Shown here piece by piece: positions 7,834-40,219 of a stretch of DNA of 49,423 nt (its first letter is position 1; every line of letters starts with the position of its first letter). Location of the stretch: NCBI GenBank assembly GCA_051294375.1, contig CM119264.1, positions 29,292,686 through 29,342,108 of the forward strand. The letters run 5' to 3'. The translations under genes and the position numbers were made by a program. Under the pieces are notes generated by a model. That model had not been told where the DNA came from, did not search any database, and saw only the letters and a program-made list of their open reading frames with translations. Source of the stretch: Paraspadella gotoi. Its lineage: Eukaryota; Animalia; Chaetognatha.

Positions 7834-8426
7834 TAAGGCGTAGTAAAATTCCTAAATTTAACTTTAATTAAAATTCTAAAAGTGAGGAACAAACAACTTT
7901 ATACTAATGAACATTTATGTAATAAAAAAATTTATAATAGATTTTACAATTTACGCAGTAGGCCATATTTAGAATAGTACTAAACCAATAAATGTTAAAA
8001 TTTCGAAACAGTTTTTATAAGACTTTTTTGCAGATTTGGATTTGTCATAAAAAGTTTATAAAATGAAATATAACTCTTTTTAAAAAATTCCTTCATTAAG
8101 TGGGTCAAAAATTAGAAAAAGCTATATTTTGAGCTGGAAATTAATTTTTTATATATTAAATACAGTTTTTTTAATTTTTAACCCACTTAATGAAAGAATT
8201 TTTAAAAATGATTTATATTTTCTTGTATTAACTTTTGACGAGGAATTCAAATCTGCAATCAAAATTTAAAAAAGCCTATTTTGAAATTAAGGTTAGTACT
8301 ATATATAAATATAGCCTACTGCGAAAATTAAAAAATATAAAATTAATTTTTTTTACAAATTAATGTTCACTGATGGTATGTTGTTCATAATTAACTTTTA
8401 GAATTTTCGTATGTAACTATGCCTTA
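7834..8426. mobile_element. hAT-family MITE, copy 1
   Basis: TIR taaggcgtagt / actatgcctta; 8-bp TSD atatacag at 7826-7833 and 8427-8434; long internal inverted segments. Confidence 0.85.
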
Positions 8427-8455
8427 ATATACAGTCCTGTGCAAAAAAAGCATAC

Positions 8456-8689
8456 TATGGTGGACTAAAACCCACTAACCGTTCATCAGCGGCCATTAGT
8501 GCCGGAGGCAAGTCATTCGCCTCTCAACCCAAAGGTCCGGGGTTCTAGCCCGGTGGTCGTCTGGCAGTTAAGAGGGACGGGGCGCTTAACCCGCCTGTAA
8601 CATGGTGTTACAGCCTGATCCGAAGCTCAGGGATTGCTTATATTGAACGGTTCTATCACTAACTCATAACAATAATTACTGTCTCTTCA
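8456..8689 (+). mobile_element. tRNA-derived SINE-like repeat, family 1, copy 1 (carries twister motif)
   Basis: Near-identical to 22829-23059 and 23247-23481; tRNA-like head with acceptor gcggcca/tggtcgt and T-arm ccggg-gttctag-cccgg (B box); ends ctcttcaatactcttcaa. Confidence 0.8.
8563..8638 (+). ncRNA. Putative twister ribozyme, P5-type permutation
   Basis: P5 ggcagtt/gattgct; aagagg-gacgg; U^AAC at 8587/8588; P3 ctgtaac/gttacag; P4 cctga-tccgaagc-tcagg; T1 pseudoknot CCG/CGG; T2 GC/GC. Confidence 0.7.
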
Positions 8690-9575
8690 ATACTCTTCAA
8701 AGTTAAGTGACACTCGTTTTACACACATATTACAAAAAGTAATGATTGATGAATTGAACTAAGTTCGGAGAAGTGGCTGTCCTTGAATTCTAACTGACTA
8801 GGCTAATTCTGCGCATTGAATACGAAATGAATTCGGGTATAAATGGCGCAGAAGAGACGATGGCGCCGGTCAAGACGCCCTGGAGATGACGACGACAAAG
8901 TCTCGGTAGATAACGTCGGCTAAGGCCGAAAGGACGACGATCTACAAAGCCCAGGACTTGACGAAATGTCAATGACGTGTCTGATGCTTGAGAGTTGTAG
9001 AGTCTGTAGTAGTAGTTGAAGTTAGAAGTCCTGGGCAAGGAATAACAAAACATTTAGTACAAACTCAGCAAATATATATAAGTTTAAAGTGTCTTTCTTA
9101 CTTGTTTCTGAAGCCAATAATAAAATAGAGATGTTTCTCTCATAGAAAAGTCCACCAAACCAGCGATCACACAAAAAATAAGTTTCCGAGATATCTAATA
9201 AAAGAGTTTCTAAATGCTCTGAAAAGAACTAAAAACCCAGTGACAACTTTGAGATCTGAAGATACCACGTGGCCAGAATTTCGATCAGAATCAAATCGAA
9301 ATCTATCGAAATCACGGGCACCAATCAGAATCAGCTGTACACTGCCTTCGGAAATCTGTACTTTAGTATAAACAAAAGAGAGATCCTAAAGATGTCGTTG
9401 CGATCGCTAGAACGGAGGCATTTTCGATGTCAGTAATAAAGAACAAAAGAGCATGGGGAGAAAAGGTAGAGAAGCTGGATTTCCTCGTAATATAAAAGAT
9501 AGTTATTTCGTAACAATTGATAAATGTAGATTTTAAAATGAGAAATCCATATGTGTGAGTTATAAGAAAATTGGT

Positions 9576-9781: not shown

Positions 9782-10300
9782 GAAAATTGGTAAAGGAATT
9801 CAAGAGCTATAGCTTCCAAAAGACAAGTGGTCAAAAACATTCGTCATTTGAGTCACTTCAAAAAACTATTTTTAAAGATTTGCCAAAAACCGAAGATACT
9901 TTTTAGCCTTAATTTATGGGCATTGTATTTATGTTTTTTTTTAAATTGTGAATATGAAATAAGGACTTTTGAAAGAGGTATCTATATGTGTATGTATAAG
10001 TATATGTGTATAAGAAAATTGGTTCAGTCATTCCAGAGCTACACAAAAGGTTAAAAACACTTTAATTTTCTTCTGCTCTGACATTCTGTTTGAGTACTTA
10101 ATAATTGTAACTGTAAAAAATTTAAAAATCATTTCTTCGTAATGGATAGCCATAGATTAACCAAATTTACACCAATAATGTTTGTGGGTGTCCTCTTTTT
10201 TTCACAGGACTGTATAGTTTTTGCAGTTGTTTTTGTGCAATCTATGTAAGCTGTAGTTCATTGACTTCATTCAAATAGTGATGTCGTCGGCGATTCACGC

Positions 10301-10702
10301 ATGAGTCGCACGATTCACGCAAGAGTACCAAGGTACCTTGCTTATCATAAGGGTAAAATTTGCACTGCTTTACTACAGTACCACATTAAAAAAATTAAAT
10401 TTATAATAATAACTGAGGCAGCTCCTTTTCTATCAGGATCCTTTAAACCGTGCATTTTATCAGAGGCAAATAAATTAGCTGAGTATAAGAAGATAATAGC
10501 TTTAAAGTGGATGATGATTGGGATTATCGTGGTCCAGTCTCTTGTCGCAATCACTTTGCAACTCTTTCTTGTCTTCAAGACCAAAGGAGGAATAAGAGTC
10601 TATTTCCTCATTGATTATCTCGCCCTCATCGCCTTGCTCATCACAGGTTACTTTGACACGATGAGCAATATTTATAGACACATTAAGGATTGTGACCGAA
10701 CT
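10301..10702 (+). CDS. Divergent 7-TM receptor-like protein, exon 1 (start codon uncertain)
   Basis: ORF with two hydrophobic helices (IIALKWMMIGIIVVQSLVAITLQLFLVF; VYFLIDYLALIALLITGYF), ending at a phase-0 donor act|GTAAGT. Confidence 0.6.
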
Positions 10703-10927
10703 GTAAGTTTATTAGTGAGGTTAATAGCTGTTATGAGTAAATCGTTATATATAAATTGTACATTAGGCCGGAACAGGTTGAAAACTGGAAGTTCTCTCAA
10801 ATAAATAATGGTTAAGTGACTGTTAGAGAATATGAAAATGAAAATAATTTTTAAAATTTAGCCTATTGATAAGCGCACGGAAGCATTTAAAGATTATTTT
10901 ATTACTATATAAAGTTTAAGGTGGCTG

Positions 10928-11776: not shown

Positions 11777-12463
11777 TTCTATGAATTAAATAACCCATCA
11801 AATTCTCACCAAGGGTTTGGAGCTTATCATTACCACTCGATACACACTCAGTTGGCCATTGCTATTATTGATTATCGCAAGGTTGCTGTGAGTCTTGTTA
11901 TTTTGGACTTGACTCGTATGTTCTGTCAACCTTTACAATACAAGGATGACTGGCTGACAAGTCGAGCCATTGGCCGCCACATGCTAACTTTAGTATATCT
12001 TTTCATTTTTCATGTCTGCAACCTGATGGAAATTATTTTTGATGTTTTTGATGATCATTATAATTCTGATATACTTTTCTACAATCGGGTGGTGATGCTT
12101 TGCATTAATGCCACTCATGATCTTATTCTATGCATCTGGTCAATTACTAACCTAATTCGGATAAGAGCAAAATTGAAAGAAATCAGTTCCTCTGGATTGA
12201 AATCAAAGAAACAATTGGCTCAAATGAAGAAGTGTGAAAGATTCTGCTCATTATTAATTATTCTTCTGTTTTTGAACTCTACTATTGATAAAGTGATACA
12301 TATTTTCACTTTTATCAAAATTCTAAATCATTTCGAGGAGGCAGTGAGAAAATTTGTTTGGCGTATTTTTCATATCTTATTTGGTCCTTTTTTTATGTTT
12401 TTGGTTCTGTTTTTTTTTCCAAAAACAAGACCCTCATTTATGTGTAAAAAAAAACTGATTTAA
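11777..12463 (+). CDS. Divergent 7-TM receptor-like protein, exon 2
   Basis: Polypyrimidine tract + ttctAG acceptor, phase 0, open to TAA; five more hydrophobic helices; FCQPLQY after TM3 resembles the class A GPCR C.PL.Y motif; joined CDS is 362 aa. Confidence 0.65.
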   Translation, partial: FYELNNPSNSHQGFGAYHYHSIHTQLAIAIIDYRKVAVSLVILDLTRMFCQPLQYKDDWLTSRAIGRHMLTLVYLFIFHVCNLMEIIFDVFDDHYNSDILFYNRVVMLCINATHDLILCIWSITNLIRIRAKLKEISSSGLKSKKQLAQMKKCERFCSLLIILLFLNSTIDKVIHIFTFIKILNHFEEAVRKFVWRIFHILFGPFFMFLVLFFFPKTRPSFMCKKKLI

Positions 12464-13356: not shown

Positions 13357-15732
13357 TCCCCCCCCAAGACCGTCGCCGGAAGGGGGCGCGTCTGATCTTG
13401 AACGGAGGAGGCTCATCTTCGGAATTTTCGTCGGGAGGGTGGAGGGAGTCCGGCAGTGGGACTCTCATCTCCGGAATTCGATGTCGCGCCTTTGAAGCTC
13501 TTGGAGGTTGGCGTCTTGTTGTAGTTTCTGTTGGCATTGGCGTTGCGACGCTTGGCTCTCGTGGAGACCACCAGTGGGTGGACAATCGATGGAGAAAGGG
13601 CTTCGGCTTGAGGTTGTGCTGTACTGGGTTGGACTCGTGAAGAAGTCGCATCGCGCTCTTCCAATGGCAGGTCGACCGATTGGGCTGGCAGTTGGTGGCG
13701 TGGGTAGGTTATCTTCATCGATGATGGCAGGTTTAAGGCGGTCGACAAATGACTTGGTCGCCTCTTCCGGGTATTGTGACGATGAAGGTCTTTTCTCTCG
13801 CGCTCTTTCACTTGGAAGGGCCCGTCGTATGGCGCCGTTAGGGGGGCGTGGCCATCTCGCCTGATAAAAACAAATTTTGAATTTTTTAAAGAATCAGGAA
13901 AGTTTACTTTTATGTTTGCATGATTTGAGCCTGGTTTTGGTCGGAGCAGTGAGACATCATGGCGGAGGTTTTGGAGCATCTCCTGACGAGCCAATTGGTC
14001 AACCTCAGGGTTGACCTCGTTTGTGGTTGAGATGAGGTCGCCCGGAATAGCGAGAGTCTCCCCGAAGGTAAGCTCAGCTGCGGAGGCGCCCAGTTCTTTC
14101 TCGTGGCGCCGCGCGGAGACCAAGAAGCGTCCATGGAAGCTGATGGAACCAGTTGGCGCCGGCGTCTTTGCATCGAGCTTTGATTGATGCTTTAAGGTGC
14201 GATGGAATCGTTCCACGAGGCCATTGGCTTGTGGATGATAGGCCGTTGTTTGTGCGAGGCGATATCCAACAAGTTCAGAGAGTTGATGCCACAACTCGGA
14301 GGTGAACTGAGCTCCACGGTCGGAAGTAACTGTCATAGGGACGCCAAGCGTGCGACCCAACCATGGAGGAAGTTGACGGCGACAATTGGCGGCGGAAATT
14401 TCTCTGAGTGGAATCGCTTCAGGCCATCGCGTAAAAACGGTTCGATGCATGTAAGTAGGTGTGGCCGGCTGATTCTGGAAGTGGGCCAACAAGATCAATA
14501 TGGACGTGTTGGAAACGTTTCTCCGGTGTCTCGAAGGCTTGAAGAGGGCACGGACGTGTTCCTGCACTTTAGTGCGTTGGCACATAATGCACGTGCGGCT
14601 CCATTCTGCAGCGTCGGATGATGCCGAAGGCCAAACAAATTTTTGCGTTATTAGTTTTGTGTGGCGCGAACACCTGGATGGGCGAGGCCGTGAATGACGT
14701 CAAAAACGTGGCGGCGCCATTTTTTTGGAACAATGGGCGCGCGCGACCACTGCTGATATCGCAGATGAGATCAGCTTCACCAATTTTGACAACTTTGAAC
14801 GAATTCCAGTAAGTGGATTTCGAGTAGTGTTTTTTCACATCAGCGTCATTTTGTTGGTCATTCGCCATTGCATCAAAGTCAATTCCATGAGGGCCAACCG
14901 CTGCAACGATGCTGTGAGGCTTTTCGCAAGCCCTTGCTGATGCTACAAGGCCGGGTTGACCAGGGAGTTGGGGAACATCGATGCGAGAGAGGGCATCAGG
15001 ACGACGTTGGCTTTCCCTTCAATGAATCTGATGTCCGTTGTAAATTCAGCGACGCCGGCGAGCTGATAGGCTTGACGCATAGTGTGAGGCTCACTTTTTT
15101 TAACAAGGCCTGGGATGAGGGAGTTATGATCACTGTAGAGAGTGAATTGACGTGCTTCAAGGTATGGCCGGAAGTGACGGATGGCGAGATGAGCGGCGAG
15201 TAATTTTTGGTCAAAAGGCGGCCATTTTGTTTGGTTTGGTTTTAAGGGTTTTGAGAAAAAACCAATTGGCTTCCACAGGTCATCCTCGAGCTGTTCTAGG
15301 ACGCCGCCGACGGCGAGGTTGGAGGCGTCAACGGTGAGAGCAAGGCGGGCGCCGTCAATGGATGGAGCTAACATAGTTGCATTGACTAGTGCTGTTTTTG
15401 TCTCCTCGAAAGCCTTTTGTTGTTTTTCATTCCATGTGAGACACTTTGGATTGCCGCGTAGACATTCATAGAGAGGGAGAGCTTGTGGGCGGCGCTTTTG
15501 ATGAAACGCCGGTAATAATTGAGCATCCCCAAAAATCGTTGGAGCTCCTTGATGCTGGTCGGTGTTGGGAAGTTGTTGATGGCCTCAACTTTGTCCGCTT
15601 GAGGGCGAATTCCTTCGGCGTCCACACGAATGCCGACAAAGTCGAGAGATGGGACGCCAAAGACGCATTTTGCGCGGTTGATAATGAGGCCATTTGCTGA
15701 GAGTTTGTTGAAGCATCGGCGAAGATCTTCAA
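12971..15732 (-). mobile_element. Ty3/Gypsy LTR retrotransposon (CsRn1-like), partial, copy 1
   Basis: Frameshifted pol: RT thumb (LQRFLGMLNYYRRFI), RNase H (LTVDAS...WKPIGFFSK...YSDH), integrase (SDRGAQFTS...TTAYHPQANGLVERFHRTLK), APYDGPF motif; PPT at ~13357-13366; truncated at the N gap. Confidence 0.9.
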
Positions 15733-16644
15733 ATCTCTCTCTCANNNNNNNNNNNNNNNNNNNNNNNNNATAAAGATACATTTTTGCAATGTACAACAAA
15801 GATAAAGGATTTAATTAAATAATTAATGATAGCAACCATGACAATGATAATACCGACGATGACAAATTGGTTGATTGCTTAATTTTTTGATTGATTGATT
15901 GAATATTTGATTAATTGATTGAATAATTAATTAACTGATCAGTTCTGGCATTGTTAGCTCAAACTTGTTTGTTTTTTTGTCTTTTCATTATGACAAAAGA
16001 AATGACTACCCTGATGATGATTATGATGACAACGAGGATAGCACCATCATGATTAATTGAATGATTGATTGTTCAAATAAAATAAATTCATATCAGGCCT
16101 GTTAATTTTTAAATCTTTTTGTCAGGTCACTGACCAGGACAAAAGCAACAATGACATTGGAGATACAAATGATAACACTGACATTGTTTAATTGATTGAT
16201 TAATTAATTGATTAATTAATTAATTGGTTCTTGGTTTTTTGTTTTTTTTCATTTAAACTCATTTCCACTCGAACGATTCTTACAATTTTACAAATCTTAC
16301 AATTTTTCATAGTAAAAATTTCTCTTGTTATTTGTTAACAAAAAAGATTGTTTAAAATTATTCTACAAATGAATTACATGTCTAAAGAGAGTATTTTTAA
16401 AATAATAACAAATGTAAAATTTCTAAAGGAAGGAAGCGATGTGCACTCGAAACCGAAAGCGATCCGGGCTAAAAAAGTAAGGATTGCACCCGAAAACGGG
16501 AGCGGGAGGGTCTTGAAGCGCCGGATTGGCAGCGGCGGAAAAATCGATCGCTTCCACATCTCTGCTTATAATTGCATTTAAATGGCAATATATTTTTTAA
16601 TCTTTTACAATAATTATCGTAAAAGAGCTTAAATGAAAGCTAAG

Positions 16645-19600
16645 TGTTTGGAAACCCTCGTTTATGAAGAAAGAGTCGTTGATTAATTTTAATTAAACTT
16701 ATCATTACACTACTTACAATACAAAATATACAATACTTTACACATTGAGAAATGTATATGTTATACAACGTACTTTAGACAATACAATAAAAATAGACGC
16801 AAAAATACTTGAGGCAAAATTGATTGTAAAACAAACGAATAAATAAGAAGGTTAACCGTTAAGACGACGTTAATTTAGAGAGAGAGAAAAAAACCAGATT
16901 TTTCAAATATAGAGGATAGAGAGAGAAGAGAGAGAGAGTTCCTTGAGCGACGCGAACGAATCAAAGACGTTGAGGTCTTCATATTGAGTTTGGTGAGTTG
17001 TATTTTTGCGACGAGCGCGTAAGTATAATTGCAACGAAGGTCAATTCAGGTCACCAGACATCCCCCCCCAAAGACCGTCGCCGGAAGGGGGCGCGTCTGA
17101 TCTTGAACGGAGAGGCTCAATCTTCGGAATTTTCGTGCTGCAGGAGGATGGGTAGAGGAGTCCGGCAGTGGGACTCTCATCTCCGGAATTCGATGTCGCG
17201 CCTTTGAAGCTCTTGGAGGTTGGGTGCTTGTTGTAGTTTCTGTGTGGCATTGGCGTTTCGACGCTTTGGCTCTCGTGGAGACCACCAGTGGGTGGACAAT
17301 CGATGGAGAAAGGGCTTCGGCTTGAGGTTGTGCTGTACTGGGTTGGACTCGTGAAGAAGTCGCATCGCGTCTTCCAATGGCAGGTCCGACCGATGGGCAT
17401 GCAGTTGGTGGCGTGGGTAGGTTATCTCATCGATGATGGCAGGTTTAAGCGGTCGACCAAAATGACTTGGTCGCCTCTTCCGGGTATGTTGACGATGAGT
17501 CTTTTCTCTGCGCTCTTTCACTTGGAAGGGCCCGTCGTATGGCGCCGTTAGGGGGGCGTGGCCATCTCGCCTGAAAAAACAAATTTTGAATTTTTTAAAA
17601 AATCAGGAAAGTTTACTTTTATGTTTGCATGATTTGAGCCTGGTTTTGGTCGGAAGCAGTGAGACATCATGCGGAGGTTTTGGAGCATCTCCTGACGAGC
17701 CAATAGGTCAACCTCAGGGTTGACCTCGTTTGTGTTGAGATGAGGTCGCCCGGAATAGCGAGAGTCTCCCGAAGGTAAGCTCAGCTGCGGAGGCGCCCAG
17801 TTCTTCTCGTGGCGCCGCGCGGAGACAAGAAGCGTCCATGGAAGCTGATGAGAACCAGTTGGCGCCGGCGTCTTTGCATCGAGCTTGATTGATGCTTTGA
17901 AGGTGCGATGGAATCGTTCCACGAGGCCATTGGCTTGTGTGATGATAGGCCGTTGTTTGTGCGAGGCGATATCCAACAAGTTCAGAGAGTTGATGCCACA
18001 ACTCGGAGGTGAACTGAGCTCCACCGGTCGGATAGACTGTCATAGGGACGCCAAAGCGTGCGACCCAACCATGGAGGAAGTTGACGGCGACATTGGCGGC
18101 GGAAATTCTCTGAGTGGAATCGCTTCAGGCCATCGCGTAAAACGGTCGCGATGCATGTAAGTAGGTGTGGCCGCTGATTCTGGAAGTGGCCAACAAGATC
18201 AATATGGACGTTTGGAAACGTTTCTCCGGTGTCTCGAAGGCTTGAAGAGGGGCACGGACGTGTCCTTGCACTTTAGTGCGTTGGCACATAATGCACGTGC
18301 GGCTCCATTCTGCAGCGTCGGATGATGCCGAAGGCCAAACAAATTTTGCGTTATTAGTTTTTTTGTGGCGCGAACACCTGGATGGGCGAGGCCGTGAATG
18401 ACGTCAAAAACGTGGCGGCGCCATTTTTTTGGAACAATTGGGCGCGCGCGGACCACTGCTGATATCGCAGATGAGATCAGCTTCACCAATTTTGACAACT
18501 TTGAAACGAATTCCAGTAAGTGGATTGTCGAGTAGTTTTTTCACATCAGCGTCATTTTGTTGGTCATTCGCCATTGCATCAAAGTCAATTCCATGAGGGC
18601 CAACCGCTGCAACGATGCTGTGAAGGCTTTTGCAAGCCCTTGCTGATGCTACAAGGCCGGGTTGACCAGGGAGTTGGGGAACATCGATGCGAGAGAGGGC
18701 ATCAGTGACGACGTTGGCTTTCCCTTCAATGAATCTGATGTCCGTTGTAAATCAGCGACGCCGGCGAGCTGATAGGCTTGACGCATAGTGTGAGGCTCAC
18801 TTTTTTTAACAAGGCCTGGGATGAGGAGTTATGATCACTGTAGAGAGTGAATTGACGTGCTTCAAGGTATGGCCGGAAGTGACGGATGGCGAGATGAGCG
18901 GCGAGTAATTTTTGGTCAAAAGGCGGCCATTTTGTTTGGTTTGGTTTTAAGGGTTTTGAGAAAAACCAATTGGCTTCCACAGGTCATCCTCGAGCTGTTC
19001 TAGGACGCCGCCGACGGCGAGGTTGAGGCGTCAACGGTGAGAGCAAGGCGGGCGCCGTCAATTGGATGGGCTAACATAGTGCATTGACTAGTGCTGTTTT
19101 TGTCTCCTCGAAAGCCTTTTGTTTTTTCATTCCATGTGAGACACTTTGGATTGCCGCGTAGACATTCATAGAGAGGGGAGAGCTTGTGGGCGGCGCTTTT
19201 GATGAAACGCCGGTAATAATTGAGCATCCCAAAAATCGTTGGAGCTCCTTGATGCTGGTCGGTGTTGGGAAGTTGTTGATGGCCTCAACTTTGTCCGCTT
19301 GAGGGCGAATTCCTTCGGCGTCCACACGATGGCCGACAAAGTCGAGAGGGACGCCAAGACGCATTTTGCGCGGTTGATAATGAGGCCATTTGCTGAGAGT
19401 TTGTTGAAGCATCGCGAAGATCTTCAAGATGTTGCTCTTCGTTGTCGCTGGCAACGAGGATGTCATCGAGGTACACGAAGACGTGCGGGACATCGCGGGA
19501 GGACACATCCCACTCTGGAAGTCCTGACTCGCGTTTTTGAGACCAAAAGGCGTGCGCGGGTACTCCCAAAGACCATGGGCGTGATTACCGCTGTCTTCTT

Positions 19601-19788
19601 GATGTCTTCTTTTGCAACTGGAATTGTGAGATAGCCTTTGCAGAGATCTATTTTTGAAAAAATCTTTTTTCCTGCGATGTCGGCATTGAAGTCCATCAAA
19701 TTCCTGATGAGGTAGCGATCATCCTTAGTGACGGCGTTGAGGCGACGATAATCGCCGCAGGGGCGGATGGAACCATCAGGTCACCAGA
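16645..19788 (-). mobile_element. Ty3/Gypsy element, copy 2 (indel-rich; RT-RH-IN-LTR, lacking gag and protease)
   Basis: Colinear with copy 1, plus the RT N-terminal part (PDGSIRPCGDYRRLN, FSKIDLCKGY, YLDDILVAS); LTR at ~16645-17060. Confidence 0.9.
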
Positions 19789-22119: not shown

Positions 22120-22828
22120 TCCACAATATCTTTCAAACGGTTAAGTAGATATGCCTTTTTTGTGAAGGTAATTAAATTTTTATATGTTTTGATTCAAAAA
22201 CGTTTAATATTGGAGGCAGAAAAAAAGGGATAGAGAGTAGCATATTTTTATAAGGTCATAATGTTTGAACAGGTCCCCTAAATACTAATCAATACTAATC
22301 CTACTAATACTAACAAATACTAGCTAAGCATAAGCATGCAATGTCCTTAAGACAAATAGGATTAGTTTTTTTTTCGAGCCTGAACCAAAATACCAGACAT
22401 TGTCATTCTCAGTAGTGAGTAGTGATATTTGAGTTAAAATTAATAATGATTAGATATTAAAAGAGGGGAGAAATTAAGGAATTGTTTCCAAACTTTTTTT
22501 ATTTCAAAATTTGTTACAATTTTTTTCAGCCAAGTATTATATATAATTTTAGCTCAAAAATTACGAAATTTATCTTTAATTTGTTTTTGTTTCTGTTTAA
22601 TAATATTTCATTTGCCTTTAAATTTTGGATTAAAGAATTTTCTGAATATGACCTTATGCTTTAGTGACAAGTAATTAGGAAGATAAACAAGTTTGATCAA
22701 ACAATAGCGTATCTGCAAGCGTCATTTAGCGGTAATAGAGTAACTGCAAGCGATTAGAGAGTATCTGCAAGCGTCATTAGAGATGAAGAGACAGTAATAA
22801 TTGTTATGACTTAGTGAAACAACCGTTC

Positions 22829-23059
22829 TATGGTGGACTAAAATCCACCAACCGTTCATCAGCGGGCATTGTTGCGAGGCAAGTCATTCGCCTCCCAACC
22901 CGAAGGTCCGGGGTTCTAGCCCGGTGGCCGCCTAGCAGTTAAGAGGGACGGGCGCCTTAACCCGCCTGTAACTCGGTGTTACAGCCTGATCCGAAGCTCA
23001 GGGACTGCCTATATTGAATGGTTCTATACTAACTCATAACAATAATTACTGTCTCTTCA
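22829..23059 (+). mobile_element. SINE-like family 1, copy 2 (twister motif at 22934-23009)
   Basis: Matches 8456-8689; preceded by an inverted copy of its own 3' end (22785-22828). Confidence 0.8.
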
Positions 23060-23246
23060 TTGGTGAGACGACTTCCGAACACAACAGCAACAACAACACT
23101 TTCAGGCGACATGCCTCAACCTGGCGATGCACTTTCCGCCCACAACACATCAGGCGACATGCCTCAACTTGGTGATGAACTTTCACCAACAACAACAATT
23201 CACTGAAGAGACGCAACAGACTTCTCCCTATGGGAGGGGGGGATTG

Positions 23247-23481
23247 TATGGTGGACTAAAATCCACCAACCGTTCATCAGCGGCCATTGGTGCCGGAGGC
23301 AAGTCATTCGCCTCCCAACCCAAAGGTCCGGGGTTCTAGCCGCGTGGCCGCCTAGCAGTTAAGGAGGGACTGGGCGCTTAACCCGCCTGTAACTCGGTGT
23401 AACAGCCTGATCCGAAGCTCAGGGACTGCCTATATTGAATGGTTCTGTCACTAACTCATAACAATAATTACTGTCTCTTCA
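23247..23481 (+). mobile_element. SINE-like family 1, copy 3 (twister motif at 23354-23430)
   Basis: Matches 8456-8689; followed by an inverted internal fragment (~23486-23511). Confidence 0.8.
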
Positions 23482-24397
23482 GTTCCATATTAGCAGTCCC
23501 TGAGCTTCGGAGTATCTTCAAGCGTCATTTAGCGGTAATAGACTATCTGCAAGCGGTAATAGAGTATCTGCAAGCGTCATTTAGCGGTAAGCAGCGAATT
23601 AGATGATATCATATATGGTCAGATTAATTTTCTAATTTTTTAAATTTATTACAATTCACTACTTATAATTATTTATAATTATAGTTTTTTTAATTTGGTA
23701 GTTGTTTGAATTCAGATGATAATGCAGGTTATGGTCGTACGGACTGACGGACGGACAGAGAGAGAGAGACTGACGGATAAAGATCTTTTTTTTTTGAATA
23801 TTTTTTTCATAATTTAAGATGATATAAATTCTAAGATCGGATTTGGATTCGTTGCAGTAGGAGGAGGAAGAGAGATTAAAATTTGGTAGAAACTAAATAG
23901 CTTTTAACTTTTGATTTAAATACAATTCATGGTAGTGATTAGAATATTTATAAAATTTGTTTATCTTGTATTTGTTTTAATTTCCTCAGTATTACTTTCT
24001 GTAATTTAACTTCTCCTGAAATACTCAAAATGGCAAAGTCAAATGACAGGGTGTAAATGTAAAGTACAGATCTGCTTTTATGTACAGTATAACATTTCTA
24101 GCTTGCCAATTACTTTTTTTTTAAATAACAAAATTAAATGAGAATTATTTTAATATTTATTAGACACTAAAATGAGGCAAATTAGCCAAATATACCTTTC
24201 CAATAAACATCTTTCATACAAATAGAGAGAAAAAAAATACGGGCGTAACAAGAGGAGCATTACAATAAAGTTACAATGAGTCAACGTCGGAGGGAATTTT
24301 TTTTTACGTAATTAAAGTTTCATCCTCTTCGTTGTGAGTGAAAATGCGATGTCACGTGACTTTTTTGCGGTATCACAGTTTTTGAGTATGACAACTG

Positions 24398-24889: not shown

Positions 24890-25539
24890 CTGATGGAAGA
24901 AGAAGAAAATTTGTAGTCTCAGTTACAAGTTACGTAACGTCGCGTATCGTAGAACGGGAAACGCGTAGGGCAAGTGGCGGATTTCTGAGACACGTCAAAA
25001 GCGGAATAAGAAAAGTGACGAGTTGAGGTTTGCTGTTTTTTAGTTGTTCAAGTGTTTTTAATTGTTTTTATTCTTGTTGTTAAATGTTGCTGTCGTTGTT
25101 GTTAGATGCCTCGTCTTATTTAATTAATTGTGCATTATAAATTGACATCCTCTCATCTCACCTTATACAATATACATTGTGAATCCCTTCCATGGCCTTA
25201 CCTATTACCCATTACCCATTACCCATTACCCATCCTTACCCAATCGTCGCCTTACCAATTCTTATTCTTTTCCAGACTCATTACCCATCTAATTTCTTCC
25301 CAATCAAATTTTTCAAAGGCGCCCTATTTCTGTTTAAATTCAATTTTAAATCAGTTTTTTAGGTTTAAAAAGTAAGTTTAGTTTTCTAGGATTAAGGATA
25401 AAGTTTAGGATGAGCGTTATGGTAAAAGATTAATCATTTGATAAAAAGGTGAAATATTAAAGTTTATTTCAGATCAGGGATTAGAAAAAGAAACGAGGCG
25501 CTTTCGGAAATTAGTAATGCCCCTTCCCTTTAACCTCAC

Positions 25540-25695
25540 CCGTTATAGAGTTCCTCATTAGCGTCGAGCTGCTTCAGGAACTGCGCGAGTCTGAAGGGTG
25601 AGTCAAAGTCTTCCACGTGGATGAACGAGTTGGACGGAGCCACTCGTTCGTAGTCGCTCCGTCGGGCGCCCATCACGATGGGGACTACATCGTGG
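25540..25695 (-). CDS. FucTA: Core alpha-1,3-fucosyltransferase exon
   Basis: HDVVPIVMGARRSDYERVAPSNSFIHVEDFDSPFRLAQFLKQLDANEELYN; ctcAG acceptor, GTGAGG donor. Confidence 0.93.
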
Positions 25696-25735
25696 CTGAG
25701 GTGGAAAGAGATGGTTAAGTGAGAGATGGAGATAG

Positions 25736-25769
<34 letters not shown>

Positions 25770-26841
25770 TTCTCTCTCTCTCTCTACCTTCTATTCATAT
25801 TTTTAACTGTCATTAGTATAACAACAAGTAACATGAAATCAAATGTTAGTATTTGATTTTTTTTTGATTTTTTTTCCCCCCCCTTTTCATTTTTTCTTGT
25901 CTAAAAAAGACAAGAGTGTTCTGTACATAGATTAATAATAGAATTTTAATCTCAGATTATAATTTTAAATTTGGTCGTATAAGTGAGCCGAGTCTGAGCT
26001 ACTTGTCTTATAATGATGATATGAAAGCTTCGAAAATGATTTCACGAATCACGATGCTAAAATAATTCCGTAAAAAAAACTTTTTTCCAAAACCAATCAA
26101 GCAAGCAAGCAATCAAACAGACATGCAATCACCTCTTCCATTTTTGTTCCCCAAATGCCAAGCAAACGACATTCGACATTTCACCCCCTCCTCTCCATTC
26201 CCTTGCGCTTTTGTTTTCACGACATCCAACTTTGATTTCCCTTTTTTTTTCTCCGACGAACAATTTTTTTTCTTTGTCTTCCCCTCAAATATTCATTCGC
26301 GTCTTTCTATTCCAATTTCGAAGCCGGAGGGAAAACGGGCGGCGCTGCGGTCACTACCGCCGTCGCCGCCGCCGTCACTAACACCGCCGCCGCCGCCGCG
26401 CCGCCGCAGGAAATGGCCGAGAGAATAATGACATATCCGCTCAGATTTTGTCGCTTCGAGGCCTGTCAGAGAGACAGTAAGACAGTTGGCGCGAGACTCG
26501 CAATATCTTGGTATGATTGCCTGTTGGTTCTACACCCAATGGCCTTGTAGTTTTAACGCCAGATAACCTAACTTATTAAACGAATCGAAAAGATATGGTG
26601 ACACTGTGGCGAATACTAAATTCGTCTCCCGTATAGCTTGGTGAAACTCATTGGCTTGGACAGCGAAGTACTCGTTCACCAACCGTGACTTCCGCTCCGG
26701 GTTCAAACCCCTCACGGTCACGTTAAGTGTGGTGGTGTTGGCATTAACACTGTATGTCTAAAGCCCTGAGCGACACGTGTCGGAACAGCTACGGAACGCT
26801 AATGGATATCAAGTTTTCATTTGTGATGTACTCCGTTTTTA

Positions 26842-31208: not shown

Positions 31209-32197
31209 AAAAGAAGGCTCGATCCCTATTGCTTTTAAGATTTTATTGAACGGTTTTGTCACTATCACTAACAATAATTAATGTCTCTTCAAGAATAAGA
31301 TAAAGAGACTAACAAGGGACAAACGACGCCTAGAACCAATATCACAGGCGTGAAATTCAAAACATTTCATACAGACTGGCTTAAAACGTAAAAATACGGT
31401 AAAGCCATGTTGAAATATGGTATTTATCTGGCCCGGATCGCGCATGATCAATGCTTATTTTTAATTGATGTCCCCATTGGATAACCTACGTCAACCATTT
31501 TCAATACAGACCGGAACGCGCTTAAAAAAGCTTTTAGCGTGCAAAAACTTGATATTCCTTTCTATTTGCTCTAAATTTAATATAAACTCTCTAAATTTAC
31601 CCCGCGCTCTACCTGAAACAGATAGTAAAAACAATATAGTTTCTTTCGATGGTCTTAGAACAAAAAAAAATTGAAGGCTTGACTATGCAGTTTTCACCTA
31701 AAAAACCAGTTCATTTGATTGCTTTATCAAGCATTCAAGATTGCAAGAATTTAAACTTTTCTTTTTTTTTATCTATAGAGAAGACAATAAGCTATCCGAA
31801 CCGTACTGATATGTATGTGATTGTTCTATTTACAAAAGATCAAGCAGGGTTTTTGGGAAAAGGGAAAAAACGGTCTGACCAGTTCATTTAAATACCATTT
31901 TTGGGCATGATAAAATGGGTATTTCGATCGCGCTCTACCTCCGTTGGCTTCCAAAGCGCCAAGCTTTCGAAATCTACCCATATTGATATAATTTATATGG
32001 GCCTTGACTATGCAGTTTTGAATAGAAGTGAATATAAAGGAATCTTGATCGGAACTTCGATTCGAACGATGCGCAGCCCTAATTATTTAATATTTAAAAA
32101 AATGACGAAAAAAATTTAAGAATAGGCAAAAGAACAAATCAGGGCCGAGCAAGCATTAAAACAAACAAACGAAACAAGAGTAAAACAAAAAGGCAAA

Positions 32198-33226
32198 TTA
32201 AATCAACCAACTATTAAACAATCTAATCAAATCAACCAATGAAATCATCATAAGAATCAAACAAACAATCAAATGAATCAATCAAATGAACCAATCAAAA
32301 CAACCAACTTCAAATGAACCAATCAATCAACCAATCAAATCAAGTCAATCAAATCAACTAATCCAATTAGCCAATCAAATCAACCAAACAAATCAGCTAA
32401 CCAAACAGCCAATCAAATCAGCAAATCAAATCAACCAATCAAATAAACCAACTTCAAATGAACCAACTTCAAATGAACCAATCAAATCAGACAATCAAAT
32501 CATCCAATCAAATCAACCAATCAAATCTGCCAATCAAATCAACCAATCAAATTAACCAATAAACCAATCAGTCAATCAAATCATTCTAACAAATCAACTA
32601 ATCAAATTAGTCAATCAAATCAGCCAATCAAATCATCCAATTATATCAGCCAATCAAATCATCCAATAAAATCATCCAATCAATTCAACCAATCAAATCT
32701 GCCAATCAAATCAACCAATCAATTGAACCAACTTAAAATCAGTCAATCAAATGATCCTATCGAATCAACTAATCAAATTAGTCAATAAAATCAGCCAATC
32801 AAATCAACCAATCAGTTCAGCCAATCAAATCATCCAATAAAATCATCCAATCAATTCAGCTAATCAAATCAACCAATCAAATCAACCAATCAAATTAACC
32901 AATCAACCAATCAGTCAATCAAATCATTCTAACAAATCAACTAATCAAATTAGTCAATCAAATCAGCCATTCAAAACATCCAATCAATTCAGCCAATCAA
33001 ATCATCCAATCAATTCAGCCAATCAAATCAACCAATCAAATTAACTAATCAACCAATCAGTCAATCAAATCATCCTATCAAATCAACTAATCAAATTAGT
33101 AAATCAAATCAGCCAATCAAATCATCCAATCAAATCAGCCAATCAAATCATCCAATAAAATCATCCAATCAATTCAGCCCATAAATCAACCAATCGAATC
33201 AACCAATCAAATCAACCAATCAAATG
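32198..33226 (+). repeat. ~12-bp minisatellite (aatcaaatcaacc / aatcaaatcagcc)
   Basis: About 1 kb degenerate array abutting a FucTA splice donor. Confidence 0.9.
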
Positions 33227-33233
33227 ATCCAAC

Positions 33234-33400
33234 CTCAAGGCGTTAAAGAACTTCTCCGTGATGTAATCGACGCAGTTCGAGTTTTCAAAGGCGAGATAGT
33301 AACGATAATCTCTTCGCAACATCTCGAGGCACTCGTCGTGTTTCGATCGAGGGCAGCTGAGGTTCCCGCAGCCTCCGTAGACGTCGACCGGGTAGTAGAG
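33234..33400 (-). CDS. FucTA: Core alpha-1,3-fucosyltransferase exon (alpha-1,3 FucT motif)
   Basis: LYYPVDVYGGCG...YRYYLAFENSNCVDYITEKFFNAL; cccAG acceptor, GTTGGA donor. Confidence 0.95.
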
Positions 33401-33847
33401 CTGGGTAAGGTGGTAAAGAGAGCGAGAGTTAAGGGATGAGGAATAAGGGAAAGGTCGACGGAAGGATGGGAAGTCAATTGATTCTCGTCTTGGATCTATG
33501 TACAAAAACCGCCTTGGGGGCAAAACCCTTAAGCCTGGTTTCAAGGCCAGGAATCTTTCCATGGCTGCTAGAGGGGGTTAAAGAAGTTGCGGATAGCACT
33601 CTTCAGCCCCACTTAGAGCCTCCAACCCTCTCGCTAGCAGGTCTCAGAGAACTTTTAATCAAGACTCTGTTAGTCTAGTTAATTAAAACCCAGATTACTC
33701 GGCTTTCCTAATCATTTTTAACGTGCAATCTTTTCCTTCAATAAATAATACATAAAATTATATTTTCCAGTCATAAAATCTCCGACTTTGCATTTTTGGC
33801 CCGTCAAAAGCCTCACCATTCGCTTTGATAGTTCACAATGTGTCTAT

Positions 33848-34457
33848 TAAGGCGTAGTGAAAGTTACATACGAAAATTCTAAAAGTCAATTATGAACAAC
33901 ATACCATCAGTGAACATTAATTTGTAAAAAAAATTAATTTTATGTTTTTTAATTTTCGCAGTAGGCTATATTTATATATAATACTATCCTTATAATATCC
34001 TTAAAATTTCAAAATAGGCTTTTTTTAATTTTGATTACAGATTTGAATTCCTCGTCAAAAGTTGATACAAGAAAATATAATTCATTTTTAAAAATTCTTT
34101 CATTATGTGGGTTTAAAAATTTAAAAAACTATATTTAATATATAAAAGTTAATTTTCAGCTTAAAATATAGCTTTTTCTAATTTTTGACTCACTTAAGAA
34201 GGAATTTTTCAAAAGAGTTATATTTCTTTTTATTAACTTTTTATGACAAATCCAAATCTGCAAAAAAATCTTAGAAAAACTGTTTTTGAAATTTTAACAT
34301 TTATTGGTTTAGTACTAGTATAAAATATGGCCTACTGCGTAAATTGTAAAATTTATATATAATTTTTTTATACATAAATGTTCATAAGTATAATGTTGTT
34401 CGTTCCTCACTTTTAGAATTTTAGTTAAAGTTAAACTTAGGATTTTACCACGCCTTA
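33848..34457. mobile_element. hAT-family MITE, copy 2 (opposite orientation to copy 1)
   Basis: TIR taaggcgtagt / accacgcctta; perfect 8-bp TSD gtgtctat at 33840-33847 and 34458-34465. Confidence 0.88.
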
Positions 34458-34788
34458 GTGTCTATTCACAGGCGGGCGTTTTCTCTTTCCGATCACACAT
34501 TTCCCACCAGAATCACTCGACTCTTCGACCACAAATGACCCAAGAGCAAACCCATTTTATAAGGCAATAAGTGGGCTGAAGAGCGACAGCCAAAACTTCT
34601 TTAATTTCCTCTCGCAGACGTGGGTTTTCCAGGCCCAGGGGTGTTTACGGCCATCTTCACGCTTCCGCTGCTGGTAGGTACTGTTGGGAGTCGATCACGG
34701 TACCTAATGGTCATGAGCTGATTGTTTTATTATTATTAGCCACCGTGTCGGGACCTGAAGGTTACGTGCTTATAGAAGGGGTGAACAT

Positions 34789-35261
34789 TAAGGCGTAGTG
34801 AAGTTACATACGAAAATTCTAAAAGTCAATTGTGAACAACATACCATCAGTGAACATTAATTTGTAAAAAAATAAATTTTACGTTTTTTAATTTTCGCAT
34901 AGGCTATATTTATATATAGTACTATCCTTATAAAATCGAAAAATTTTAAAATAGGCTTTTCTTAATTTGATTGCCAGATTTGAATTCCTCGTCAAAAGTT
35001 GATAAAAAGAAAATATAATTCATTTTTAAAAATGTTTTCATTAAGTAGGTTAAAAATTTAAAAACTATACTATATTTAAAATATAAAAGTTAATTTTCAA
35101 CTTAAAATATAGCTTTTTCTAATTTTGACCCACTTAATGAAGGAATTTTTTCAAAAGAGTTATATTTCTTTTATCAACTTTTTATGAACGATCATCTTCT
35201 CTCTNNNNNNNNNNNNNNNNNNNNNNNNNAAAGTTAAATTTAGAAATTTTACTACGCCTTA
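34789..35261. mobile_element. hAT-family MITE, copy 3 (contains an N gap)
   Basis: Same TIRs; noisy inverted re-reads of MITE copies at ~35860-36414 and ~37950-38355. Confidence 0.75.
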
Positions 35262-36769
35262 ATATTCACCCCTCCTTTCTTCCCTCTTCCTCTTCCTCTT
35301 CCTCCCTCTTCCATCCTCTTACTCCCTCTTCCTCTTCCTATTCCTTTTTNNNNNNNNNNNNNNNNNNNNNNNNNAGGAAGAGAATAGGCAGAGGTAGTGG
35401 GAGGGAGAGTTAGGTAAGAGGGAAAGAAAAGAGGGGGAGAAAAAATGAATGGAGAGGGAAGAGGGGGAGACGAGGGAAGGAAGGGGAGAAGAGAAAAGGG
35501 AGGAAAGAGTTAGGAAGAGTGAAGAAGAGGAAGAAAGAGGAATGGAAGAGGAGGGGAAGAGGAAAAAGGGAGGAAGAGCGAATGGGAATAATAGAGATAA
35601 TAATGTATTAGGTAAGAAGTCGTCTGCAAAGCTTTTAAGAGATTGGTATGAATAAAGTGATAAAAGATTTAGAAATTTTAGGATTGGACAGGACGCACTG
35701 GTGAGGAAAAGTAGGAAGTTTACAAGAAGAGTGGAAGAACAGGAGGGGTCCATACTATTAATCTGTCGCTCGTTGTAACAACTTCTCTATACTATCACTT
35801 TTACCTCTACAATATTTCCATCCTCACAAATGTGATTGAGACATACAATTATTAATAAATAACTGAACATTTATGTAATAAACACAAATTTTATAATACA
35901 ATTTTACAATTTACGTCAGTAGACCATATTATATAGTACATAAACAATAAATTATTAAAATTTAAAACAGTTTTTTCTAAGATTTTTTTGCAGATTTGGA
36001 TCTCTTATAAAAAGTTGATAAAAAGAAATATATACTTTCTTTTTTGTAAAAATTCCTTCATTAAGTGGGTAAAAATTAGAAAAGCTATATTTTAAGTTGA
36101 AAATTAACTTTTTATATTTTAAATATATAGTTTTTTAAATTTTTAACCTACTTTTAATGACATTTTTAAAAATGAATTATATTTTCTTTTATCAACTTTT
36201 GACGAGGAATTCAAATCTGCAATCAAATTAAGAAAAGCTATTTTAAAATTTTTCGATTTATAAGGATAGTACTATATTATAATTATATGCCTATTGCGAA
36301 AATTAAAAAACGTTAAAATTTATTTTTTTTACAATATTTAATGTTCACTGATGGTATGTTGTTTTCACCAATTGACTTTTTAGAATTTTCGTATGTAACT
36401 TTCACTACGCCTTAATGTTCACCCCTTCTATATAGCACATAACCTTCAGGTCCCGTTATATTCGTTGGGTGTGTTTGTTGTCTTATATATATTTTTCCCC
36501 TTACCCTCTTCCTCCCTTTTTCCTCTTCCTCCCTCTCATTCAATTCCTCTTTGCTTCTTCTTCATCTCGTCTACTCTCCTAACTCTTTTCCTCCCTACGT
36601 GTCTCTTTTCTCTCATCTTCCTTCCTCGTCCTCCCTCTCGTTGTATCCTAGTTCACGTATTTTTCTTCCCCCTCTTCCTCCTTCCTCTTCCTAACTCTTC
36701 CTTCCCTACCTCTTGCCTACTCAACAGTTCTTCCTACCTTCCCTCTCTACTCCAGCGCGCGAAGTCGTT

Positions 36770-39335: not shown

Positions 39336-39409
39336 TTCCTCTTCCTCCCTCTTCCTCTTCCTCCCTCTTCCTATTCCTCTCTCTTCCTCTTCCTTTCTCC
39401 TCCTCAAAC

Positions 39410-39783
39410 CTTAAGCCTCTCCACGTAGAGACTCCTATTGTTCTTGGCGCCGCAATTGCTGACGAACCAAGCGACGCCTTTCGTCTTGGCGCCGGATCTA
39501 CGGCGCCGTCGACGAGGCGTTGCGGAGCCGGGTCGGCGGAGGTGCCGGAGGCGGAGGCGGTGATGGAGGTGGGAGGAGTGGTGGGAGTCGGGGCGGTGGC
39601 GGCGGCGGGGGCGGCGGAGAGGGCGGGAGGCGGACAGAGGATGTGATTGGCGAGTATTGTTATTGTTGTTGTTGTTGTTGTCGTCGTCGTCGTAGAGTCT
39701 GAACTTTCCGTAAGGAGTCACCAAAGTCGAATCCCACCGATAGGTGGCGGTCCAGTTGAAGACGTGACGCATTTCGCGAATGT
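39410..39783 (-). CDS. FucTA: Core alpha-1,3-fucosyltransferase exon
   Basis: FNWTATYRWDSTLVTPYG...KTKGVAWFVSNCGAKNNRSLYVERLK; phase 1 to phase 0. Confidence 0.9.
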
Positions 39784-39982
39784 CTGTTTTTTTAGAAAGA
39801 TGGGGTAAGGAGGGAACGTAAGGACAAAGGTGGAACTTACCTTTAAGGAGTGAACAGGACATCATCATACAAATTCATTAACTTATCTTTTACGCAGAAA
39901 ATTGGAATGAGATTACAACATCTAAATTGTTGAACTTACTTTTGGGTAGTGTAAATCGAACTTTCCAAGATTATTGACTTAC

Positions 39983-40118
39983 CTTTGACGCTGGAAGTGT
40001 GAAAGGGACTTTCCAAAGAGTACAGCACCCAAATTTGTCCATCAAGTCTCGAGGAGAAGTAATGAGGCGGAACGTAAACGTCGCGAAAGAGAACAGCGTC
40101 GGCGCGATGAGTATTCGT
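39983..40118 (-). CDS. FucTA: Core alpha-1,3-fucosyltransferase exon
   Basis: TNTHRADAVLFRD...GQIWVLYSLESPFHT; cacAG acceptor, GTAAGT donor. Confidence 0.9.
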
Positions 40119-40219
40119 CTGTGAATGAGAATCCGGAGCATTTCTAAGAAATGAAGTTGGTACGGTTAATATTAAAAAGTTATCCTTTTATATTCTGTGA
40201 TAAGCTATCCTCCTTCTCT

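Follow-up and report, generated by a model that had tools for sequence, protein, structure and literature searches.

The 234-bp repeat unit found at positions 8456–8689 of the window (the whole stretch of 49,423 nucleotides of Paraspadella gotoi DNA that was analysed) carries a motif that is almost certainly derived from a twister ribozyme of the P5-permuted type. The unit itself is very probably mobilised by a Penelope-like element (PLE), and it is likely to be a passenger of a Naiad-type Penelope-like retrotransposon. The explanation that accounts best for these features, held with a confidence somewhat short of even, is that of a Pol III-driven, twister-processed, retrozyme-like RNA circle copied by the Naiad reverse transcriptase (RT), with a ribozyme that would likely function as a swapped dimer. 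In its fullest form, which is put forward more tentatively, the unit would be a twister-based retrozyme that combines a Pol III RNA circle, a naturally dimeric, domain-swapped P5 twister, and copying by the Naiad RT, with the terminal-repeat twisters of Naiads taking the place of hammerheads.

Three full copies of the unit are present in the window (Table 1), with lengths of 231–235 bp and pairwise identities of 91.5–94.5%. The three near-identical copies of about 235 bp described in an earlier note on this DNA are thus confirmed, whereas two inverted partial copies and a tail-only copy had been overlooked there. The unit is non-coding and, as seen in contigs of public sequencing runs, high-copy. 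In run X2, 14,245 contigs match it, 932 of them fitting only in part, and the loose contig ends cluster sharply at both ends of the unit, with 137 at 8455–8456 and 240 at 8689–8692; the position of the 3' end of the tail was fixed from these ends. The copy number may lie between hundreds and thousands, with contig depth itself yielding no copy count. The empty paralogous site of copy 1 is present in one X2 contig. The depth of the tail is lower in runs X5 and X9, not in X2, a difference that was judged unreliable, and organism B, represented by only two low-depth tail contigs, was left out. Searches of viral contigs and of prokaryotic genome contigs returned no homologues of the unit, and none of the 15 loci obtained in a homologue search of metagenome contigs corresponds to the 234-bp unit. 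An unrelated P1-type twister was recognised by eye in two identical metagenome loci (L005 and L008, positions 701–732).

Copies 2 and 3 flank a captured spacer, for which the only Pfam match is a single weak one below the cut-off; the spacer includes an imperfect internal repeat, as well as a short inverted match to the tail end of the unit near 23205–23215. A loose end at 8641 raised the possibility of a second SINE sharing the tail, which was rejected, as the source is the tail-only copy at 31244 of the window itself.

Table 1. Coordinates of the repeat copies and of the structural elements of copy 1 in the window.
Feature	Position	Strand	Remarks
Copy 1, 234-bp unit	8456..8689	+	target duplication of 4–5 bp (ATAC or ATACT) on the flanks
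Inverted tail-only copy	22784..22828	-	head-to-head junction with copy 2
Copy 2	22829..23059	+	twister core intact, linker altered, A box damaged
Spacer, 187 nt	23060..23246		inside the composite insertion
Copy 3	23247..23481	+	T1 partner mutated, B box altered; ribozyme predicted dead
Inverted fragment, equivalent to 8619–8648	23482..23511	-	joined to the 3' end of copy 3
Tail-only copy, equivalent to 8641–8689	31244..31291	+	accounts for the loose end at 8641
5' hairpin opening with TGGTGGAC	8458..8477	+	pairing probability 0.99–1.0 in folds
Arm 1 of the 9-bp long-range stem	8477..8485	+	pairs with 8644–8652
tRNA-like region	8490..8560	+	A box 8497–8508, B box 8541–8551
P5-permuted twister motif	8563..8638	+	positions assigned by comparison with Table 1 of PMC8501958 and the consensus of Rfam RF02684
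P5	8564–69/8632–37	+	twister motif, copy 1
P2'	8573–75	+	twister motif, copy 1
General-base G; A	8576; 8577	+	twister motif, copy 1
T1 partner	8578–80	+	twister motif, copy 1
Palindromic linker	8581–86	+	replaces the P1 hairpin
Predicted cut	8587/8588	+	twister motif, copy 1
P2	8590–92	+	3 nt on the 5' strand
T2 GC	8593–94	+	twister motif, copy 1
P3	8595–8613	+	twister motif, copy 1
P4	8614–18/8627–31	+	5 bp
L4	8619–26	+	twister motif, copy 1
Arm 2 of the long-range stem	8644..8652	+	pairs with 8477–8485
3' tail, 37 nt, G-poor, ends in TCTCTTCA	8653..8689	+	mean unpaired probability 0.73–0.84

Copies 1 and 2 retain the general-base G, A+1, A+2, the A following the G, and the U..AAGC of L4, with T1 formed by CCG/CGG and T2 by GC/GC. 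A descriptor that requires L4, T1, T2, a four-pair P4, UAA, and two P2 pairs matches both of these copies in the P5 order, and no P1-type arrangement was found by descriptor in the window, so that the strand order proposed earlier is upheld. The descriptor gave no match when the window was dinucleotide-shuffled 300 times (29.5 Mb, counting both strands) or when the element was shuffled 100,000 times, and, with P4 relaxed to three pairs, it recovered 34 of the 53 control loci, all 34 being among the 38 phage loci. The statement that each copy has the motif holds for copies 1 and 2 and fails for copy 3, which keeps the catalytic and core nucleotides yet breaks T1. Its middle T1 partner is changed from G to U, one more G stands ahead of P2', and P3 contains an A.A mismatch; the first of these changes is what makes it fail the descriptor. 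In the rice twister, every single change of the corresponding residue, G48, abolishes activity.

The search with the Rfam twister models that had been recommended as a check was run and went the other way, with no match at E ≤ 10 at three scopes that included the whole window and the single copies; no hammerhead and no tRNA match was obtained at these scopes either. RF02684 does match phage control loci, and in all it matches eight of the 20 loci scanned (of 69 fetched). The models miss the motif of the unit because its P1 is reduced to a six-nucleotide palindrome and its P2 is short and mismatched. P2 comprises three nucleotides, with two Watson–Crick pairs and a C.A (or a bulge), and is not fully paired, a feature that had gone unflagged in the earlier reading, in which the twister parts themselves were correctly recognised. 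The P1 hairpin is absent, the six-nucleotide linker being able to pair only between molecules, and L4 is closed by A-U. Among the best 40 of 74 variants of the family, no base change restores P2, and no indel is listed, so the short P2 represents the family majority. The common variants lie in the P3 loop and at the edge of P5, with no compensatory variation among them, and the listed changes in the core are mostly of the CpG type, reaching at most about 7% of depth. A minus-strand hammerhead, suggested by two CUGANGA words, was rejected, since no stem II plus GAAA follows them.

Whether such a motif could cut was assessed from published activities and from predicted folds. Measurable self-cleavage is given slightly better than an even chance, and the modelled P2 provides real grounds for doubt. 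The compensatory changes in T1 and P4 pointed out in the earlier note are present, and both are tolerated in the rice twister: in the accessible part of the Osa-1-4 matrix (PMC5113685), an end-point assay that overstates slow mutants, the T1 change C27G/G47C has a relative activity of 0.86 and the P4-closing change G23A/C32U one of 0.85, with 0.84 for a C.A at the third pair of P2. P1 is dispensable for catalysis in twisters, and, according to a review, changes in the length of P2 may disturb the active site. The T1 variant of the unit is also found in phage P5 twisters, three of which have a three-nucleotide P2 and score above the Rfam gathering threshold; all 12 phage loci with a three-nucleotide P2 have three P2 pairs, as opposed to two in the unit. 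The occurrence of a 3-bp P2 in phage P5 twisters (L036, L039, L040, L044–L046, L048–L053, L116, L120, and L121) contrasts with the description of P2 as a length-sensitive stem of 4 bp.

In the predicted minimum free energy (MFE) fold of the monomer, the T1 partner is sequestered in a competing hairpin, and this fold lies 8.7 kcal/mol below the twister-compatible one. The linker of copies 1 and 3 is a self-complementary hexamer, a property shared by chance by about 5% of hexamers, and pairing between two such linkers would create a domain-swapped dimer, in which each active site would be assembled from the 5' half of one molecule and the 3' half of the other. Two-dimensional energies place the swapped dimer 11.7 kcal/mol below a pair of twister-compatible monomers. 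It is not the MFE structure for copy 1, and the MFE dimer of copy 2 has the swapped arrangement with P2 in a slipped register; in this register, which is 7 kcal/mol better in the two-dimensional model of the dimer (pseudoknots being outside the energy model), the catalytic G is paired. Hammerheads of the Penelope type with palindromic short stems are described as acting as dimers in the accessible part of PMC6765202. The ribozyme of the unit would likely act as a swapped dimer, and the earlier idea of a dimer mediated by the palindromic linker gains support from two published Naiad twisters, parsed by eye, that also have palindromic linkers.

The 5' hairpin opens with TGGTGGAC, which begins at the third base of the unit, and may serve as a recognition signal for the reverse transcriptase. 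The hairpin is followed by a 9-bp long-range stem that encloses both the tRNA-like region and the twister motif, with probabilities of its central pairs of 0.97–1.0 in linear folds and 0.92–1.0 in circular folds. The partial copies start or end within or beside the arm of this stem at 8644–8652 (equivalents of 8641, 8645, and 8648). The tRNA-like region, which may resemble tRNA-Gly(CCC), shows acceptor-like and T-like stems in folds, and a C>A variant at 8503, present in 12% of the X2 depth, gives the canonical A14; ARAGORN calls no tRNA genes in the window. The region begins 34 nt inside the unit and is therefore not located at its head, contrary to the tRNA-like head assumed previously. With the A box placed 41 nt from the 5' end, Pol III would be expected, from the geometry of its promoters, to skip the first 20–30 nt of a lone copy. 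No T4 terminator is present in the unit, which is uninformative, because 59% of shuffles also have none. The terminal 37 nucleotides are probably a Penelope-type tail. Three 3' junctions face outward, and at two of them a portion of the tail end recurs in the flank (8690–8702, and 22771–22783 on the minus strand), as TCTTCA at a distance of 4 nt and as TCTCT directly adjoining; at these few sites, the repeats could reflect pairing of the RNA with its target before priming.

The ends of the unit and the pattern of its insertions relate it to Penelope-like elements. The hallmarks of PLEs given in the accessible part of PMC8557442 include inverted 5'-truncated copies, partial tandems, and a tail of 30–40 bp. 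In the window, inverted truncated copies adjoin insertions at 22784–22828 and 23482–23511, both in one composite locus. The full copies end at 8689 and one fragment at the equivalent of 8648, with two tail-only pieces falling roughly between these points, a distribution based on three fragments only. In vitro, the PLE RT was found to initiate at two internal sites of the RNA, which delimit the tail, with a requirement for downstream RNA, and hammerhead cleavage was dispensable for insertion in the one PLE tested (PMC11167929, accessible part). None of the three full copies carries a poly(A) or microsatellite tail. A Helentron-type reading was rejected, given that 37 nt separate the inner inverted repeat from the end and that a target duplication flanks copy 1. 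No PLE protein domain was detected by Pfam among the 47 open reading frames of the window.

A closer connection is to the Naiads. TGGTGGA is found, by eye, within the displayed 5' part of 15 of the 54 Naiad consensus sequences in File S5 of PMC8557442; the 15 belong to related families and are not independent, and the motif is not seen in the displayed part of the other 39. It usually opens a short hairpin located 20–50 nt from the start of the element, and in several families, among the bivalve, coral, hemichordate, and other Naiads that have this hairpin, it is surrounded by one or two further enclosing stems. The accessible part of the same source describes the canonical hammerhead as absent from Naiads. 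Complete P5 twisters with a 4-bp P2 were recognised by eye in the 3' UTRs of Naiad_Mley and Naiad-1_Movir (File S5), in both of which a linker of 22 nt contains two 8-nt palindromes. This count of two is a lower bound, based on the last ~300 nt per consensus and on motif searches; the accessible part of PMC8557442 apparently makes no remark on them. In Naiad-1_Movir, CTGTCTCTTC, which also terminates the 234-bp unit, is found about 25 nt after the twister. Since the unit shares its end signals with Naiads, it likely borrows the Naiad enzyme, and, as far as can be read from the sequence, the ends and the insertion pattern point to a Penelope-like (Naiad) partner rather than to an RTE-type LINE.

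These observations can be combined into a mechanism, in which an RNA circle, produced with the help of the twister, would likely be the template from which the unit is copied. In a master locus with units arranged head to tail, Pol III would initiate near 8485 and read into the next unit. Two successive twisters would then form a domain-swapped dimer by pairing of their palindromic linkers, and their cleavage at 8587/8588 would free an RNA of one unit length, with a 5'-OH and a cyclic phosphate at its ends, which an RtcB-type ligase would close into a circle. The formation of RNA circles by a ribozyme and RtcB is established for hammerhead retrozymes, some of them with dimeric ribozymes, according to the parts of the literature available. 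In the circle, the tail would lie directly upstream of the TGGTGGAC hairpin, in an arrangement like that at the start of Naiad main bodies, and the Naiad RT would begin at 8689, or sometimes near 8648, make one turn, and stop at 8456. A template in which the tail precedes the hairpin in this way has to be circular or arranged in tandem. A single turn around a circle would give exactly 8456–8689, with dispersed monomers keeping the 34 nt upstream of their own promoter, whereas from a linear tandem one would expect either partial tandems or copies that begin at 8588 or at the transcription start. The circle model is favoured by the presence of the motif beyond chance, the PLE hallmarks, and the sharp, unit-length ends. 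A head-to-tail 8689–8456 junction was found neither in the window nor among the 15 of 52 joints listed, and short contigs may not span one.

The strongest competitor, possible although unlikely, is the same Naiad-dependent element with a twister that is a disabled or strongly attenuated relic of the Naiad terminal repeat. One base would have been lost from a 4-bp P2 and the linker would have shrunk, with uncut RNA being copied after end-to-end joining or from tandem loci. The four bases (GAGG) before the catalytic G look as if P2 had once had four pairs, like in both Naiad twisters, and the inactive slipped register is the one favoured in two dimensions. No loose ends are found at 8588 among those listed, with 573 and 231 weaker ones beyond them, and this lack of genomic ends at the cut site likewise speaks for a relic. 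According to the accessible part of PMC5786205, a live ribozyme behind the promoter would truncate a SINE. The insertion of a PLE in vitro without ribozyme cleavage favours this explanation as well. The family majority nevertheless keeps all catalytic and pseudoknot positions, a 3-bp P2 occurs naturally, and the interval from T1 to the cut site still holds exactly a clean six-nucleotide palindrome. A relic that no longer cuts also offers no obvious route by which the 34 nt ahead of the promoter could be restored.

An ordinary LINE-dependent tRNA SINE, with a body taken from the twister of an RTE 5' UTR, is improbable. The P3 of the unit is similar to that of Schistosoma RTE twisters, as far as given in PMC8501958, SINE bodies are often built from pieces of RTE 5' UTRs (PMC5786205, accessible part), and the short target duplication at copy 1 would be accounted for. 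The twisters of RTEs are, however, of the P1 type, an arrangement absent from the window; the lack of a poly(A) or microsatellite tail and the distance of the A box from the 5' end also disagree with this origin, which leaves the inverted tail copies and the Naiad hairpin motif unexplained.

It is quite improbable that the twister works as a monomer, with P1 open or reduced to a single pair as in mini-twisters, so that no dimer is needed and all else follows the circle model. The dispensability of P1 would permit it, six nucleotides could perhaps bridge the gap as a loop, and copy 2 keeps all core positions with an altered linker; against it stand the burial of the T1 partner in the preferred fold of the monomer and the recurrence of palindromic linkers in Naiad twisters. 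The original proposal of a Pol III SINE in which the twister cuts off its own tRNA head is very improbable and was not borne out: the predicted cut does lie 27 nt downstream of the tRNA-like region, but the inserted copies start at 8456, where the X2 ends cluster with none listed at 8588, and retain head and promoter, the unit begins 34 nt before the tRNA-like part, P5 and the 9-bp stem would hold the two halves together after a cut, and a headless copy would be left with no promoter.

Several other features were observed in the window. Frameshifted pieces of LTR retrotransposons (RNase H and integrase by Pfam), apparently two overlapping copies, occupy 13413–19780 on the minus strand, and exon-like pieces of glycosyltransferase family 10 (fucosyltransferase) are found on the same strand at 25539–25790, 33215–33577, and 39407–40187. 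Two hydrophobic frames of 179 and 228 residues with no Pfam match (10265–10804 and 11777–12463, plus strand) could represent exons of a membrane receptor. Another repeat family, AT-rich and with long inverted arms, is present at 7846–8418 and 33862–36247, with copy 1 located in or beside one of its members.

The P5 twisters in the two Naiad consensus sequences and in the unit suggest a swap of ribozymes relative to the hammerhead of other PLEs. A twister in which a palindrome substitutes for P1, as in the 76-nt motif of the unit, would represent an obligate-dimer twister, of which no description was found in the open-access literature. In that literature, twisters at RTE 5' ends were found, with nothing joining a twister to Naiads and no title matching dimeric twisters or tRNA-bearing PLE passengers. 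With 34 nt retained upstream of the promoter and an end adjoining a conserved hairpin, the unit is also a compact natural substrate, which bears on the question of where a telomerase-related RT binds, starts, and stops.

The unit was compared with several known systems. In the type-P5 twister (RF02684; PMC5408937, accessible part), the strand order P2'-GA-T1'-(P1 region)-UAA-P2-GC-P3-P4/L4 is the same, as are the catalytic G and A, T1, and T2, with the same T1 variant and a three-nucleotide P2 occurring in phage members. The unit differs in having a six-nucleotide palindrome for P1, one mismatch in P2, and A-U rather than G-C closing L4, and it sits in a eukaryotic repeat with no match to RF02684. 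The T-variants of the twister at the 5' end of the RTE Perere-3 (PMC8501958, accessible part) are likewise twisters of an animal retroelement, with a similar P3 and tolerance of a weak P1; they are of the P1 type, however, and their cut sets the 5' end of the element, whereas the cut of the unit is internal and its copies do not start there.

Where a SINE2 element has a tRNA promoter at its 5' end and a LINE-type 3' end with a poly(A) or microsatellite tail, the A and B boxes of the unit start 41 nt in, behind a 34-nt leader, and its three full copies end with no such tail. The SINE-like SM-alpha of Schistosoma also has a Pol III promoter followed by a ribozyme, which in that case is a hammerhead and not a twister; no Naiad hairpin is described in the accessible part of PMC6765202, in which single copies of SM-alpha cannot propagate and tandem copies are the source. 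Animal non-LTR retrozymes (PMC7229834; bioRxiv 10.64898/2026.07.22.740005, both in their accessible parts) share with the unit a non-coding length of 170–400 nt, a self-cleaving motif, and dispersed monomers, and for some of them dimeric ribozymes, as well as a dependence on PLEs, have been proposed or described. Retrozymes are characterized by a type I hammerhead in each unit and by tandem arrays, whereas the unit has a twister motif and a tRNA-like promoter, with no tandem array seen.

The Naiads (PMC8557442, accessible part) share with the unit the inverted truncated copies, the tail of about 40 nt, the hairpin motif TGGTGGA, and, by eye in two published consensus sequences, a P5-like twister with a palindromic linker. 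In turn, the unit has no open reading frame and carries an internal tRNA-like promoter, its twister has one short palindrome and a shorter P2, and in its monomer the hairpin lies at the 5' end and the tail at the 3' end.
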